Shown in pieces: positions 2,876 through 11,358 of a stretch of DNA of 12,204 nucleotides (the stretch's first letter is position 1; the number at the start of each line of letters is the position of its first letter). The position numbers were made by a program, and so were the translations under genes. The notes below the pieces were generated by a model. It searched no databases and was not told the DNA's origin. It was given only the letters and a program-made list of their open reading frames with translations. This DNA is from a bacterium (GTDB taxonomy: Bacteria; UBP15; UBA6099; JBFMBQ01): positions 1-12,204 of the forward strand of contig JBFMBQ010000044.1 of NCBI GenBank assembly GCA_040755115.1, written 5' to 3'.

Positions 2876-2970
2876 ATCAAATTCTTGGTATTTTAGTTGT
2901 AAGTTGTAGGGCGGCATATCCGTATGCCGCCGATTCTATCCTGTTCCCGCTCCCGTTCCCGATGTTGTAC

Positions 2971-2992
2971 GGCGCGGTGCGGAGACCGCGCC
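2971..2992 (+). repeat. GC-rich hairpin repeat type B (ggcgcggt gcggag accgcgcc); a second identical copy lies at 11138-11159
   Basis: An identical 22-nt hairpin with identical flanks (acggcgcggtgcggagaccgcgccct) occurs twice, 8 kb apart. At this copy, CAAC and TTTTTTATT follow, which is terminator-like on the plus strand. Confidence 0.8.
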
Positions 2993-3042
2993 CTGCAACT
3001 TTTTTATTCTTATTTTAACGATTTTGTGTCATAATTTAGTTT

Positions 3043-4506
3043 ATGTCAAATCAATCAGTGTATCATAAAAGAGTTAAAGTCGGCATCGTTTCCTTCACAG
3101 ACACGCGCGAGGTTGCAGGTATTGATGTGATCAACAGGCGGAATCTGAAGTATCAGTCGTCGCTTGCATCTTATATGCGCAAGGGCGGATTTGATGTAGT
3201 AGAGGCTGTGGGGCGGCAGAATGTAAATTCAAAGCGGCTGGCGGCGGAGGCTGCGCACAGGCTGCTTGCGGAGGAAGTTGACTGCGTTGCCATCGGCTGC
3301 TGGAAGTGGACTGATCCGATGCTGGTGGTTGAACTTGTGCGGCGGATAGGCTGCCCAGTTATGCTTGTAGGAGTGAACGATCCAGACGCGACGGCACTGG
3401 GGTGCATAGCGGCGGTCGGCGCTGCGTTGTGGGAGATAGCGCCGGGGGACAATGCGCTGCGCCACGAGCGGTGCCTGACGGGATTTGACCGAGTGAGTTG
3501 CTGGGCGCGCGGTGCGGGCGCGCTGACGCGCCTTCGGCGGTCGTCAATCCTGCTGTGGGGCGGCTCCTACTGCCTGAAGATGCCGCACCTTGAAGATGAC
3601 AACTCGTATCTGAAATCTTTCCTGATCGGTGATATTCTCAACGAGGATCAGTATGTCCTTATCAGGGGCGCGGATGAGTTGCTTAAAAGCAATATGAACA
3701 GGATTACAAAGTTTATAAACAAGTGCGAAGGCAAAGGGATGATGATGGCCTTTGATGCGCGCATGTTCACGCCGGATGCGCTGCGGCGGCAGGTGGCGCT
3801 CTACCTTGCGGCAAAGGACCGCCTGAAAGAACTTGCGCTGGATGAAAACATAGCGGGCGTCTCGGTCAAATGCCAGCCTGAAATTTCCGAGGTTTACGGC
3901 GTAACAGCATGCACCATTCCTGCTTTCGTCCCATACACCGAAGACGCCGAGGGCAGGAAACCGCTGTATGCAGCAGTGTGCGAGGGCGATATAAAGGGAT
4001 TGATCACATCTGTTGCGCTACAGTTCATGAGCGGGAAGCCGGCGGGTTTCGGCGACATCCGCACGCTGAAGGCGGACGGCAGAGAACACCTTGTGATTTC
4101 CAACTGCGGCGGGGCGTCAATTTATTACAGCCGTCTTGCCGGCAGATTCGCGGAAGATGCCGCCGGCGTAGATATGTCGGCGCAGTGTCAGGGCGCTTCG
4201 GGCGGCGCAGTGGGATACAGAAGCCCTGGCTTTGGGGAAGTAACGGTTGCGCGGCTGATCCGTATCGCCGGCGAGTATCGTATGCAGTATGCAGTGGGAA
4301 ATGCGGTGGAGACAAAGCAGGAGTGGCTCAACCAATTAGGCTGGGGAAGTATGTGGCCCATAACAGTGATTGATATTGGTCTTGACCTTGAAGATTTTGT
4401 ATCAAGGGTAAGCAGCAATCATTTTTCATTTATTCCGGGTGATTTTTCGGGTGAGATTGAATTTTTCTGTTCGGCAGCGGGGATAGAAGTTGAAAGGATG
4501 GAATGA
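3043..4506 (+). CDS. L-arabinose/L-fucose isomerase superfamily sugar isomerase
   Basis: 487 aa. N-terminal KVGIVSF segment and a C-terminal SSNHFSFIPGD segment that resembles the His-containing C-terminal region of AraA/FucI-type isomerases. No sugar transport or kinase genes nearby. Family-level call only. Confidence 0.55.
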   Translation: MSNQSVYHKRVKVGIVSFTDTREVAGIDVINRRNLKYQSSLASYMRKGGFDVVEAVGRQNVNSKRLAAEAAHRLLAEEVDCVAIGCWKWTDPMLVVELVRRIGCPVMLVGVNDPDATALGCIAAVGAALWEIAPGDNALRHERCLTGFDRVSCWARGAGALTRLRRSSILLWGGSYCLKMPHLEDDNSYLKSFLIGDILNEDQYVLIRGADELLKSNMNRITKFINKCEGKGMMMAFDARMFTPDALRRQVALYLAAKDRLKELALDENIAGVSVKCQPEISEVYGVTACTIPAFVPYTEDAEGRKPLYAAVCEGDIKGLITSVALQFMSGKPAGFGDIRTLKADGREHLVISNCGGASIYYSRLAGRFAEDAAGVDMSAQCQGASGGAVGYRSPGFGEVTVARLIRIAGEYRMQYAVGNAVETKQEWLNQLGWGSMWPITVIDIGLDLEDFVSRVSSNHFSFIPGDFSGEIEFFCSAAGIEVERME

Positions 4507-7922: not shown

Positions 7923-7952
7923 TCCGTAAAATCTGCGTCTATCTGCGTCCAA
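7856..7952. repeat. Composite spacer element: an AAAATTTCACGCAAAGAGCGCAGAGG motif, GC hairpin D (ggggcgcac agcc gtgcgcccc, 7885-7906) and four phased ATCTG[TC]GT decamers (7913-7952)
   Basis: The first motif recurs at 9396-9420 (AAAGTTTCACGCGAAGAACGCGAAG), and CGCAGAGG repeats recur at 11271-11296. The decamers are related to those at 5471-5500. Confidence 0.65.
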
Positions 7953-8058: not shown

Positions 8059-9384
8059 ATGAAAGCGACAATCCGGGCGTGTATTTTACAGGTTTTGTTA
8101 TGTATGTGCGCGGCAAATGCTGCGGAACTGAAGGTAGCCGGAGCGGGGAAAATTCACATAAAAACATATTTTGAATCTACGGTTGATGTGAAAGGCGTTG
8201 CGGCGCCGTTCAGGCTGGAAATATCGGCAGGGAGGCTGCCGTTCGGTCTGCGCCTGACCACAAACAATACGATTGCAGGTTACCCGGCAGCGGTTGAGCG
8301 CACAACCGCAACATTGCGCGCAACAGGCTCTGACGGCACATCAGTGGAGGAAGACATTCAGTTCACGGTAGTTGACGATAAGTTCCGCCTGCTCTATCGG
8401 GAATTACCTGTGGCGCAAGTCGGCAAAAAAATCGTGGCAAAGATAGAAATGCAGGGAGGGGTTGCGCCGTATTCGGGCTGCCGGATAGAGCGTGTGCGTA
8501 CATTTTTCAACGGCGGTGCGGCAATACCTGGGGCGAAAGCGCCGGCGGTGGACGAAGCGCCGGGATGGTTGTCGCTCAACGACGACTGCACGATGACCGT
8601 TGCGCCGGACGAAGAAGCGATTGTGCTTCTCGTGATTTCCGCGCACGATGCCGCTGATGCGAAGGCGAGCGAATTTTACGCCCTGCGCGCTGCGTCAGGC
8701 CCTTCATCACGCGGCTGGCTTGAACAGAAGGCAATAGAATACAACGAAGATTATCAGAAACGGTTCTCACCATACGGATTGACATTAGAGATTGATGCGA
8801 ACGGCGCGTATCATGCTTACGGCGATGCAGCAATGTGGACGGGAACATATCTTGCCGGAGCAGCATATTATTACGCTGTAACGGGCGAGGATTTTGCGCG
8901 GGTAAACCTTGAAAAGGCGCTTGCGGCGACAACGCAATTGCGGGAAATTACAGGCGTCCCCGGTCTGATTGCAAGGGCTTATGAAAACGACGAGTGGGTC
9001 GGCAAACGCGCAGAACCCCATATCAAGGCTGCACATGAGGAACACCGCTACCTCGTGGAGACCGGTCCGTGGAAAGGATGGCGTTTCCTGAGCACTGCGA
9101 GCCGCGACCAGTTTACCGGCGTGCTCTGGGGCAACGGAACGGTTTTAGAATTATTTGACGACCCTGATCTGAAGCGACGGGCATCTGCGAATATCGTTGC
9201 AATGGCAGCGCACATCTGGGATAACAAGATGCACATTATGGACGATTTCCAGTGGCAGCGCGAGCCATACAGGATCGGTCCGACATGGTCTGAAGGCGAT
9301 GCGGGAAGAAACTATCCCGGAGTTGATGTCATCACGCCGTATTGGATGGGGAGATATTTTGGGTATATACCCGAAGGAATATAA
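8059..9384 (+). CDS. Secreted hypothetical protein with an N-terminal Ig-like (putative-Ig/He_PIG-type) repeat
   Basis: 441 aa. Signal peptide MKATIRACILQVLLCMCAANA, then an Ig-like segment (GRLPFGLRLTTNNTIAGYPA...TLRATGSDGTS). The Trp/Tyr-rich C-terminal 250 aa is unrecognised. GGAGGG site 5 nt upstream. Its last 30 codons are duplicated about 1 kb downstream. Confidence 0.6.
   Translation: MKATIRACILQVLLCMCAANAAELKVAGAGKIHIKTYFESTVDVKGVAAPFRLEISAGRLPFGLRLTTNNTIAGYPAAVERTTATLRATGSDGTSVEEDIQFTVVDDKFRLLYRELPVAQVGKKIVAKIEMQGGVAPYSGCRIERVRTFFNGGAAIPGAKAPAVDEAPGWLSLNDDCTMTVAPDEEAIVLLVISAHDAADAKASEFYALRAASGPSSRGWLEQKAIEYNEDYQKRFSPYGLTLEIDANGAYHAYGDAAMWTGTYLAGAAYYYAVTGEDFARVNLEKALAATTQLREITGVPGLIARAYENDEWVGKRAEPHIKAAHEEHRYLVETGPWKGWRFLSTASRDQFTGVLWGNGTVLELFDDPDLKRRASANIVAMAAHIWDNKMHIMDDFQWQREPYRIGPTWSEGDAGRNYPGVDVITPYWMGRYFGYIPEGI
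9286..9375 (+). repeat. Direct repeat copy 1 (the in-frame 3' end of the secreted-protein gene)
   Basis: 90 bp, 84/90 identical to 10339-10428. Encodes WSEGDAGRNYPGVDVITPYWMGRYFGYIPE, followed by GI and a stop. Confidence 0.9.
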
Positions 9385-9483
9385 ACCCCGAAACTGCAAA
9401 AGTTTCACGCGAAGAACGCGAAGAAAAACAAAATGCGCTGGGGGAATGATAGAAACGCGAATTTTGCCAAAGAATTCCAACCT

Positions 9484-9520
9484 GCTGTGTTATCCCAAAA
9501 CACAGGCTGTGTGTTATAAT
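9484..9520 (+). promoter_or_regulatory. Promoter and candidate operator of the MNT-HEPN operon
   Basis: Extended -10 TGTTATAAT (9512-9520), 31 bp before the ATG. Inverted repeat ctgtgtt (9485-9491) / aacacag (9499-9505) over the -35 position, with ctgtgtgtt repeated at 9507-9515. Confidence 0.45.
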
Positions 9521-9550
9521 AATTATAAATGGTTTTCATGGTGAACATAT

Positions 9551-9868
9551 ATGACTGTAGTGGAATTGCTCCAACGGATTAAGGAACGCCTTCAGATTCT
9601 TTACGGCGACAGGCTGAAAGGCGTTATTCTCTATGGTTCTGAGGCGCGGGGCGACGCAGTTCCAGACAGCGATATTGACATCCTCTGCGTTCTGGACGGT
9701 TCGGTGAACACATGGAAAGAAATCCGTGCGACGGTTAAAGCGACATATTCACTAAAACTTGAATATTTAGACCGTATGTTCCACATAACCCCTGTCTCAA
9801 AGGAGGATTACGATAACGGGGCGTTTGCTATGTTACGGTTTGCACGACAAGAGGGTATTGAGATATGA
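9551..9868 (+). CDS. mntA: Minimal nucleotidyltransferase (MNT) antitoxin, MntA-like
   Basis: 105 aa. The nucleotidyltransferase signature LYGSEARGDAVPDSDIDILCV (G[GS] followed by an acidic hDhD motif). It overlaps the downstream HEPN gene by 4 bp (ATGA). Confidence 0.85.
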   Translation: MTVVELLQRIKERLQILYGDRLKGVILYGSEARGDAVPDSDIDILCVLDGSVNTWKEIRATVKATYSLKLEYLDRMFHITPVSKEDYDNGAFAMLRFARQEGIEI

Positions 9869-10266
9869 CCGGCATAACAGAAGCAAAAATTCTATGGGAG
9901 CGAGCGGTTGCCACATTTGAAGACGCCCAGGCTGTGAAACATCCTCATAGCATTGCGAATCGTTCATATTATGCCGCATTTTATGCTGTATCCGCGTTGT
10001 TCGCCCTTGAGGACGTTGCTTTCCGGAAACATCAGCAAGTTGAGGCTGCTGTCCATCGGGACCTTGTCCTGCCCGGAAAGTGGTCCAAGGAACTCGGAGA
10101 CGGTTATTCTTCACTTATGGAATTTCGTACAACCGGCGATTACGGAATCGTGAATAGTGTAACTCCGGTTGAAGCAAAAGAAGCCATAGAAATCGCCCGT
10201 GACATCCTCAAATCCGTCCACGAGGCGCATCCCGATATATTTCCCCTGCCGCTGGATAACCCATAG
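9865..10266 (+). CDS. hepT: HEPN-domain toxin, HepT-like
   Basis: 133 aa. An HEPN-like helical segment (NRSYYAAFYAVSALFALEDVAFRKHQQVEAAVHRDLV) and a C-terminal R-x-containing segment (EFRTTGDYG). Translationally coupled to the upstream MNT gene. This is the classic MNT-HEPN pair. Confidence 0.78.
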   Translation: MTGITEAKILWERAVATFEDAQAVKHPHSIANRSYYAAFYAVSALFALEDVAFRKHQQVEAAVHRDLVLPGKWSKELGDGYSSLMEFRTTGDYGIVNSVTPVEAKEAIEIARDILKSVHEAHPDIFPLPLDNP

Positions 10267-10338
10267 ACCTTTGTTTTTGTACAACCGAAATAGTGTTATT
10301 CCCTTATATCCAGATTTAAGGTCTGATACCTTTATCCT

Positions 10339-10428
10339 TGGTCTGAAGGCGATGTTGGAAGAAACTATCCCGGCGTTGATGTCATCACGCCCTACTGGAT
10401 GGGGAGATATTTTGGGTATATACCAGAA
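10339..10428 (+). pseudogene. Orphan 3'-terminal fragment (direct repeat copy 2) of a homologue of the 8059-9384 gene
   Basis: Encodes WSEGDVGRNYPGVDVITPYWMGRYFGYIPE, then YL and a stop at the same relative position as copy 1. There is no start and an in-frame stop 4 codons upstream. Five of the six nucleotide differences from copy 1 are synonymous. Confidence 0.8.
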
Positions 10429-10471
10429 TATCTTTGACCAAAATGAGCGATTTTTGACGATGAATAATTTT

Positions 10472-10551
10472 GGAGTGCGGTGATATTTCACCGCTTTGTC
10501 ATACGGCGATATATCGCCGTAAATGAAAGCGACATCGTGATGTCGCACTCC
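10472..10551. terminator. Cluster of three phased 18-bp palindromic hairpins, a probable bidirectional terminator between convergent transcription units
   Basis: Hairpins at 10477-10494 (gcggtga/tatt/tcaccgc, followed by TTTG on the plus strand), at 10503-10520 (the perfect palindrome acggcgatatatcgccgt) and at 10529-10546 (gcgacatc/gtgatgtcgc, followed on the minus strand by TTTCATTT). Outer complementary arms ggagtgcg and cgcactcc. Confidence 0.5.
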
Positions 10552-10608
10552 AGATTGATCACTCATTAGAGGAAACAATATCATAGAGAGAATCGCTCAA
10601 TTTAGGTT

Positions 10609-10899
10609 TTATTTAACGGTTTTTCTTGGTGGTCTTTCCGATGGATCGCGTACAAATCGACGAACCAATACATGGGTAATAACTTTATTTCCATCACTGG
10701 TTTGTATTGAATCATCCCATGCATCAATGATTTTTTTAACTCTACGATTTTCAAAGCACTTTTTATAGTCTCCATAATTGATATCGTGTGCTCCTTTAAT
10801 ATGCGTCTTTAATGCGCCTCCCTTACCACAGTTGCGTCCACAAATATTACACATAGTTCCACGACCTCGTCTAACAGCGCCTTTTTTTCTTTTAGGCAT
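10609..10899 (-). CDS. Small basic C2H2-type zinc-finger protein (putative DNA-binding protein)
   Basis: 96 aa from an ATG with a GGAAGGTGG site 5 nt upstream. The N-terminus PKRKKGAVRRGRG resembles an AT-hook or nuclear-localisation signal. It is followed by C-x2-C-x12-H-x4-H (CNICGRNCGKGGALKTHIKGAH). The coding sequence is markedly AT-rich compared with its neighbours. Confidence 0.55.
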   Translation of the reverse strand: MPKRKKGAVRRGRGTMCNICGRNCGKGGALKTHIKGAHDINYGDYKKCFENRRVKKIIDAWDDSIQTSDGNKVITHVLVRRFVRDPSERPPRKTVK

Positions 10900-11358
10900 A
10901 AAATCCACCTTCCTTTCTGATGATGACCAAATTATACCGCGAATAAAACATCAACAATTGATAGATAAAATAATGGGAGGGAATGGAGGTAGAGAATGGA
11001 GTCAAGTCTTTAATTTGGAGTGTTTTTTTAGATGTTGTTTTTTATATTTCCGAGACATTAATAAGTTCCCCATGCCGGCGGGCGATCTCTATGATTGCCG
11101 TATGTGCCACCCCCAAACTTGTTTTGGGGTGCCACACGGCGCGGTGCGGAGACCGCGCCCTACAGCAATTCACATGGCTAAAATGTTGCTTTTTATTCTA
11201 TCCTGAATTTATTTATACAGTCAACAGTATTGATGAGGTCTTGCTGGTTGGTTGAAAAAATCAAGATTAACCGCAGAGGCGCAGAGGACGCAGAGAAATC
11301 CGTGTAAATTCGTGTAATTCGTGGATAAAAATATATTCATCCCCGCAGCGAATAATTT

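Follow-up and report, generated by a model that had tools for sequence, protein, structure and literature searches.

A displaced gene end beside an MNT/HEPN toxin-antitoxin cassette in a UBP15 bacterium

Contig JBFMBQ010000044.1, from a metagenome-assembled genome of a UBP15 bacterium (GenBank assembly GCA_040755115.1), carries an operon for a putative toxin-antitoxin (TA) pair, a minimal nucleotidyltransferase (MNT) and a HEPN-domain protein, that is bracketed by two copies of the 3' end of the secreted-protein gene immediately upstream (8059–9384). The whole contig, 12,204 nt long, is referred to here as the window. The bracketing repeat is a genuine recombination scar, in which two orthologous 3' ends of one gene, derived from two closely related lineages, stand in tandem. 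We conclude with fair confidence that the cassette arrived together with the gene end of a donor lineage and that the resident end was pushed downstream, a core that is common to all viable models. As to the route, we favor, with roughly even confidence, a scenario in which a unit of about 1 kb, consisting of the donor gene end and the MNT/HEPN pair, entered the genome and displaced the resident end without a cassette-encoded integrase.

Two orthologous gene ends in tandem

A repeat search of the window recovered a single 90-nt direct repeat, with copies at 9286–9375 and 10339–10428 that are identical at 84 of 90 positions and spaced 1053 nt apart (self-BLAST E = 4e-32); no other repeat in the window approaches it in length. 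Copy 1 is in frame with the open reading frame (ORF) 8059–9384, on the forward strand, and forms codons 410–439, that is, 30 codons of the protein end (WSEGDAGRNYPGVDVITPYWMGRYFGYIPE). Copy 2, on the same strand, begins 72 nt past the stop codon of the HEPN gene (10264–10266) and is closely preceded by in-frame stops. Past the 90 nt, each copy runs on for two codons of its own: copy 1 continues with GGA ATA TAA (-GI and stop; 9376–9384) and copy 2 with TAT CTT TGA (-YL and stop), such that copy 2 together with its ending occupies 10339–10437. In a sensitive local alignment, the similarity was confined to these 90 nt; the cassette flanks, likewise, matched neither the resident flanks nor the resident downstream DNA nor the segment deleted from the gene (see below).

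The six differences between the copies are located at repeat positions 17, 18, 36, 54, 57 and 87, corresponding to codon positions 2, 3, 3, 3, 3 and 3. Four are synonymous, and the remaining two jointly convert GCG to GTT (Ala to Val), leaving one amino-acid change in 30 codons. When six random substitutions were simulated, at most one amino-acid change without a stop codon was obtained with P = 0.0017–0.0035, and third positions accounted for at least five of the six with P = 0.015. The longest identical run within the repeat, 29 nt, codes for the invariant YWMGRYFGYIP motif and is therefore compatible with a crossover core without being diagnostic of one.

Furthermore, each ending corresponds to a natural variant of the protein family. 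Full-length members end in -GNI, -SNI, -GNL, -GYL, -SYL, -DYM, -ETL or -SGI, the last of these in P0005 and -GYL or -SYL in P0002, P0003, P0008, P0009, P0013 and P0020; the -EGI of copy 1 fits the -SGI type, and the -EYL of copy 2 fits the -GYL/-SYL type. Both copies contain SEGD, NYPG and PE, in contrast to SEYD, NFAG and PG in the closest homologue (P0002), and the donor and recipient lineages are therefore much more closely related to one another than either is to any database sequence. The first-pass annotation of this DNA had already likened the copies to orthologous gene ends from different lineages, as opposed to a recent duplication or a decaying copy. The coordinates, identity, frame, codon pattern and two-codon endings that it gave were all confirmed, the repeat is not a chance match, and the synonymous bias, along with the two natural endings, bears out its reading of the copies.

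These same observations argue against a local duplication, either of a long target site or in tandem, in which identical copies would have been formed in situ and drifted later. Although direct repeats flanking an insert are what such an event would leave, the non-coding copy 2 should then have changed randomly, whereas five of the six differences are at third positions with a single amino-acid replacement (P ~0.002–0.015), and the last two codons and the stop are wholly different, each set matching a natural family variant. To our knowledge, no transposition mechanism makes duplications of 53–90 nt, and we regard this origin as scarcely credible. A tandem paralogue remnant was rejected as an explanation of the repeat. 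Likewise rejected were an integron gene cassette (no GTTRRRY at 9375–9376 or 10338–10339, no IntI, and a repeat that is conserved coding sequence) and a diversity-generating retroelement (no reverse transcriptase, and an A in either copy at only one of the six differences).

The distal copy is probably the resident end

Copy 2 probably represents the original end of the resident gene, and copy 1 (9286–9375) would have come in with the cassette. The last nine bases of the copy 2 ending, TATCTTTGA, are the same as in the closest homologous locus, L001, and a strongly structured element lies 40 nt past the copy 2 stop. This element (10470–10553) consists of an outer stem, GGAGTGCG/CGCACTCC, around three hairpins, with terminator-like sites on the forward (10477–10494) and reverse (10546–10529) strands and a predicted fold of −65 kcal/mol (z = −7.15). 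No tRNA, tmRNA or known RNA (Rfam) matched the hairpin cluster, which has the look of a bidirectional terminator serving both the resident gene end and a convergent gene. To the right of copy 2, there are also intergenic repeats with further copies at 2969, 4536 and 5471 of the contig; they served here solely as a marker of resident DNA. The shared nine bases, the terminator cluster and the host-type intergenic repeats are all in line with the proposal of the first-pass annotation that the distal copy is the displaced native end. There is no terminator after the copy 1 stop; instead, this stop is followed by an extended −10 promoter that is conserved among related MNT/HEPN cassettes.

The only amino-acid difference between the copies is also informative, in that the Val is derived in copy 2, and the Ala is kept in copy 1, L001 and P0002; a derived Val fits relaxed coding constraint on a displaced copy. 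We also tried L001 as an outgroup for a mosaic or crossover pattern inside the repeat, and this was rejected as uninformative because the derived states split 2:2.

The convergent gene (10609–10908, reverse strand, from the ORF list) provides the right-hand resident context of the scar. Its product is small and basic, with a CxxC...HxxxxH signature suggestive of a C2H2-like zinc finger; Pfam zinc-finger hits were sub-threshold only, no Pfam or NCBIfam family was matched above threshold, and no identical copy of the protein is on record. The intergenic repeats belong to short families on this contig, namely, 2969–2997/11136–11164, 4536–4565/11103–11132 and 5449–5516/11428–11530, and also occur at 7930–7950. 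They comprise GC-rich hairpins and runs of the ATCTGTG/ATCCGTG type and resemble repetitive extragenic palindromes, apparently specific to this genome.

An icd/icdC-like signature on a contig without a recombinase gene

The arrangement described above has a well-known counterpart in Escherichia coli, where icd and icdC lie around prophage e14 (PMC13626634). In E. coli K-12, we measured 165 nt shared between the icd 3' end and icdC at 92.7% identity. Of the 12 differences, 11 are at third positions; there are two conservative Asp-to-Glu changes, and the homology begins abruptly. As in e14/phage 21–icd, two copies of a gene 3' end bracket the insert in the window, the proximal copy completing the ORF and the distal one being a displaced fragment, and the divergence of about 7% is nearly all synonymous, as in e14–icd. 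Unlike e14, which spans 15.2 kb and encodes intE and xisE, the insert here measures 963 bp and holds only the MNT/HEPN pair, with no recombinase. Moreover, the e14 repeat includes the stop codon, which is the same in both copies, whereas the copies in the window diverge in their last two codons, and the target gene in the window is also internally deleted.

An integrative element of this kind was the interpretation put forward in the first-pass annotation, which took the two copies for an attL/attR-like scar. The element would have been of the e14/phage 21–icd type, carrying a replacement 3' end in attP, and would since have lost its integrase and all else except the TA pair, surviving as a cis-mobilizable element (CIME) or as a satellite moved in trans. 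Elements that are flanked by att sites and lack an integrase are a recognized class: CIMEs are decayed integrative and conjugative or integrative and mobilizable elements (ICEs and IMEs) that have kept attL and attR and lost the integration genes (PMC5704250). In addition to sharing its signature with the bona fide icd/icdC pair, the repeat includes the 29-nt identical run, which could contain a crossover core, and a sister unit in locus L084 (see below) seems to be circularly permuted in an independent sample, L085.

However, we found no recombinase gene between the repeats or anywhere on the 12.2-kb contig when all large ORFs were compared with Pfam. The families recovered were ADH, XseA, fucose-isomerase-like, SPFH, RluD-like, DUF362, He_PIG, MNT and HEPN, and the other genes are housekeeping ones; the ORF that runs off the right contig end resembles tRNA-guanine transglycosylase (Tgt), by inspection only. 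Nor is the gene end a recurrent attachment site: none of 74 family gene ends, in 80 loci, is accompanied by a second copy of its own 3' end, and viral contigs lacked HEPN relatives, the C-terminal motif of the family and the joint sequence alike. No HEPN relative was detected on plasmids at E ≤ 1e-10. Related cassettes adjoin different genes with different repeats, so that no single attachment specificity is evident, the joint in L084 is messy, with slippage-type repeats, unlike a clean site-specific crossover, and the repeat in the window ends two codons short of the stop, unlike that of icd/icdC. CIMEs, furthermore, are recognized by sharing their att site with a cognate ICE or IME, and no such element or recurrent use of the site was found here.

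An empty site was sought in 80 related loci from genomes and metagenomes, and none of them has an MNT/HEPN, DUF362 or zinc-finger neighbor beside the family gene; no empty site was found because the nearest relative is 83% identical in protein and is not syntenic. What stands of the attL/attR proposal is the scar, the pattern of which equals that of icd/icdC around e14; an integrase-mediated origin is not supported, as the contig has no recombinase gene. The degenerate integrase element is neither shown nor favored, and we consider it possible, although rather unlikely.

The bracketed gene has lost half of a toroid domain

The gene at 8059–9384 (forward strand) belongs to a family of proteins with a signal peptide, two Ig-like domains and an (alpha/alpha)6 toroid (Pfam He_PIG). 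The first-pass annotation had treated it as an intact target restored by the incoming element, and this is not borne out: among 29 homologues, most are 660–690 aa long (full length about 674 aa), compared to 441 aa in the window, and the protein alignment shows one clean internal gap, between NKMHIMD (ending at residue 395) and DFQWQ, which that annotation had missed. By BLASTN, window 8070–9243 corresponds to L001 1050–2223 and window 9244–9371 to L001 2923–3050, placing the in-frame deletion junction at 9243–9244, on the forward strand, with the counterpart of L001 2224–2922 gone (699 bp, 233 codons), a segment that all homologues have. L001 is the closest relative, 80% identical in DNA, and has other neighbor genes.

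The AlphaFold (AF2) model of the full-length homologue P0002, with a pLDDT of 90, comprises a signal helix, the two Ig-like domains, an (alpha/alpha)6-type toroid and a C-terminal helix formed by the invariant PYWMGRYFGY motif. Its structural neighbors in Foldseek are Ig domains, glycoside hydrolases of families GH9 and GH144, and thioester-containing domains (TED) of complement. Mapped onto this model, the deletion is predicted to take out about six toroid helices, roughly half of the toroid, and the gene product is therefore very probably inactive.

We treat the deletion as a lesion separate from the arrival of the cassette, and its closeness to copy 1, only 42 nt downstream, is not explained by the main models. 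This closeness would be accounted for if a single foreign block (9244–10338), made up of the last 46 codons of the donor gene and the cassette, had replaced resident codons 396–642 through two illegitimate joints, in which case the deletion and the repeat would have been made together, with no more illegitimate joints in total than in the other models. On the other hand, a 1.1-kb block is seldom inserted through two illegitimate joints, the odds of an in-frame fusion would have been one in three, and the 42 nt at 9244–9285 are indistinguishable from the rest of the gene. We judge such a single replacement improbable.

Two further observations concern the family and its closest locus. Across P0002–P0028, the last-three-residue endings (-NI, -YL, -GI and others) are scattered over a neighbor-joining tree of the N-terminal 395 residues, and this may reflect repeated exchange of the extreme 3' end along with the downstream DNA, with crossover in the invariant YWMGRYFGYIP region. 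Separately, the contig end of L001 carries a perfect 68-nt direct repeat (4122–4189/4482–4549, spacing 360 nt) that spans a 118-aa gene and may be an assembly end effect.

The MNT/HEPN cassette and its relatives

The 963-bp insert between the copies is composed of a 166-nt leader, the MNT/HEPN pair and a 72-nt tail, all on the forward strand. The leader (9385–9550) contains the extended −10 promoter, TGTTATAAT, at 9512–9520, and this element is conserved, by alignment, upstream of the related MNT/HEPN pairs in L082, L084 and L086. An inverted repeat just upstream of it (9485–9505; CTGTGTTATCCCAAAACACAG) is a candidate autoregulatory operator. The putative antitoxin, an MNT-type protein of 105 aa (9551–9868), matches Pfam NTP_transf_2 (4.7e-10), has the GS...DxD motif (GSEARGDAVPDSDIDI) and gives a weak NCBIfam MntA match below the cut-off. 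The putative toxin, a HEPN-domain protein of 133 aa (9865–10266), matches Pfam HEPN (1.8e-11), and its homologues are labeled UPF0332 family by JGI. The two genes form one operon, with a 4-nt overlap at 9865–9868.

Canonical HEPN RNases carry an Rx4-6H motif. In the window HEPN protein, this motif is absent, the site reading RTTGDY with no histidine, and the protein scores below the NCBIfam HepT/MntA cut-offs; the mode of toxicity, if any, may differ from that of characterized HepT RNases. The tail (10267–10338) has no similarity to the other flanks or to the gene and meets copy 2 in an abrupt joint. Exact look-ups of the window MNT, HEPN and zinc-finger proteins returned no other contig.

We collected 257 HEPN homologues, the closest being those of L082/L083 (72% identical), L084/L085 (64%) and L086 (61%). 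L084 offers the nearest parallel to the window. In this locus, the HEPN gene and its MNT partner are bracketed by a repeat of 53–57 nt (1753–1809/3079–3135, 98% identical), the 53 nt of which comprise the last 18 nt of a DUF8201 gene, unrelated to the gene bracketed in the window, including its authentic C-terminus and stop, and 35 nt downstream. Beyond the distal copy lies another MNT/HEPN pair, different from the first. The two pairs have a common right flank of about 100 nt (71% identity, rising to 93% in a 28-nt core, 4215–4242), and the locus gives the impression that two alleles of one variable region have come to stand in tandem. Slippage-type tandem repeats of 15 and 11 nt are present at the joint (2956–3078), the 15-nt array being TGACCCCATCGCTCC. 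For L084, too, an empty site was sought, and the closest DUF8201 homologue is only 50% identical.

In L085, which comes from a different sample (SRR8542065), the L084 unit is circularly permuted (1–1340), and its ends overlap by 29 nt within the tandem array. The permutation could reflect a circle, a tandem array or a cycle in the assembly graph and is not decisive. In L082, a weak repeat of 20 nt is present at the flanks. Repeats like those of the window and L084 are rare, numbering 11 in 898 kb of fetched loci. Among these, only the repeats of the window and L084, besides that of the near-copy contig L085, bracket an MNT/HEPN pair, and none of the three others that were inspected or noted does.

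A shared motif at the cassette ends was tried and rejected. The candidate was ATAAGTGTAYAACTCAAGGTCTGRCCCC, found at the right end of both L084 pairs, and AAGGTCTGA, located 12 nt before copy 2 in the window; in a scored scan, the window match (11/14) was no better than background, and other loci were without the motif. A search for the L084 motif in viral contigs gave one 17-mer match, within chance expectation by a rough estimate.

Related MNT/HEPN pairs also occur in another setting. In L090 (4690–5417) and L091 (64–480), a pair is wedged in a V-type ATPase operon, with no flanking repeat: it starts 13 nt after the stop of the preceding subunit gene, and the HEPN gene extends at its 3' end 19 nt into the start of the gene that follows. 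In L091, the gene after HEPN is the D-subunit gene (PF01813).

Proposed route of entry

In the scenario that we favor, the recipient genome would have had its own gene ending in -PEYL, followed by the terminator cluster. The incoming unit would have carried the donor gene end (-PEGI), the leader with its promoter, the MNT/HEPN pair and the tail. After entry, copy 1 would close the reading frame, and copy 2 would persist as the displaced resident end, no longer translated. The joint at 10338–10339 might have been formed by any of three routes: a single crossover between a circularized fragment and the chromosome in the shared 90 nt (Campbell-type insertion); homology-facilitated illegitimate recombination anchored in the gene; or the action of a site-specific recombinase that was supplied in trans or has since been lost. 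We lean toward the first two, which do not involve a recombinase, because there is no integrase, the gene end is not reused, the sister cassette lies in a different gene and the sister joint is messy. By either of these routes, the repeat would be a by-product without a function of its own. It would nonetheless allow the cassette to leave as a 1053-bp circle by homologous recombination, and addiction to the TA pair could be expected to select against such loss.

There is a precedent for displacement of a 3' end by homology-facilitated illegitimate recombination in the arrays of type VI secretion system (T6SS), Rhs and contact-dependent inhibition (CDI) genes (PMC5361080). As in the effector-immunity arrays of the Vibrio cholerae T6SS and in Rhs/CDI arrays, the module here appears anchored by homology in a conserved upstream gene, and the resident 3' end would have been moved downstream as an orphan fragment, with no need for an integrase. 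The lack of similarity between the cassette flanks and the resident downstream DNA agrees with this model, in which only one side of the module is homologous. In those arrays, however, toxic C-terminal domains are exchanged together with immunity genes, whereas a conserved gene end, with an independent TA operon as cargo, is involved here. Another partial parallel is provided by TA cassettes flanked by repeats, such as those of integrons and the ParE/ParD module found between 152-bp repeats in Microcystis (PMC7935541). These cassettes, like the one in the window, consist of a self-promoted TA pair of about 1 kb between direct repeats; unlike in the window, where the repeats are the coding sequence of the neighbor gene, their repeats are attC sites or intergenic repeat elements.

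Several observations weigh against this scenario. No donor allele, recipient allele or empty site was found, so that both the polarity and the mechanism rest on indirect evidence, and a site-specific element with a replacement 3' end would yield the same pattern equally well, as measured on e14. Five other related MNT/HEPN loci have no flanking repeat; bracketing by a gene end is not general in the clade. The 42 nt that separate the deletion junction from copy 1 make an uncomfortable coincidence if the two events were independent. Finally, the contig is a product of metagenome assembly.

The last point raises the question of whether the assembly merged two co-occurring strains into a chimera, only one of them having the cassette downstream of the gene. 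The window is the whole contig of a metagenome-assembled genome, and the copies differ by about 7%, as co-occurring strains might. Chimeras mediated by repeats, however, leave one copy and not two diverged copies, and no stretch of k-mer length is common to either joint (9243–9244 or 10338–10339) and any other part of the window, so that reads must span both joints. We consider an assembly chimera very unlikely.

Implications

Scars of this type, in which a displaced gene end lies beside an acquired cassette, are already known, and for the present two-lineage case we leave the joining mechanism between the routes outlined above. The locus is a readable trace of one acquisition, in which the incoming and resident ends stand side by side; the direction can be inferred, and the donor can be assigned to a sister lineage with a divergence of about 7% at this site. 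For annotation purposes, ORF 8059–9384 is a deletion derivative and probably non-functional, and 10339–10437 is a gene fragment. The signature, a gene end present twice at a distance of about 1 kb with coding-constrained divergence, is easy to search for and could reveal integrase-less cassettes in metagenomes.

The movement of chromosomal TA pairs outside integrons, plasmids and prophages is mostly unknown. The notion in the first-pass annotation of a larger element reduced to its addiction module is a conjecture, and the sister locus suggests that the TA-only unit itself may move. A broader and highly tentative idea, about which we remain doubtful, is that the MNT/HEPN pairs of this clade travel as TA-only units of about 1–1.3 kb, with a captured end of a neighbor gene as a portable homology patch, and that these units circularize and re-insert by single crossover, through host recombination or a recombinase acting in trans. 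The leads in this direction are the window, L084, the permutation in L085 and the weak 20-nt repeat in L082. If true, this would amount to integrase-free spread of addiction modules between sister lineages, leaving behind scars similar to icd/icdC.

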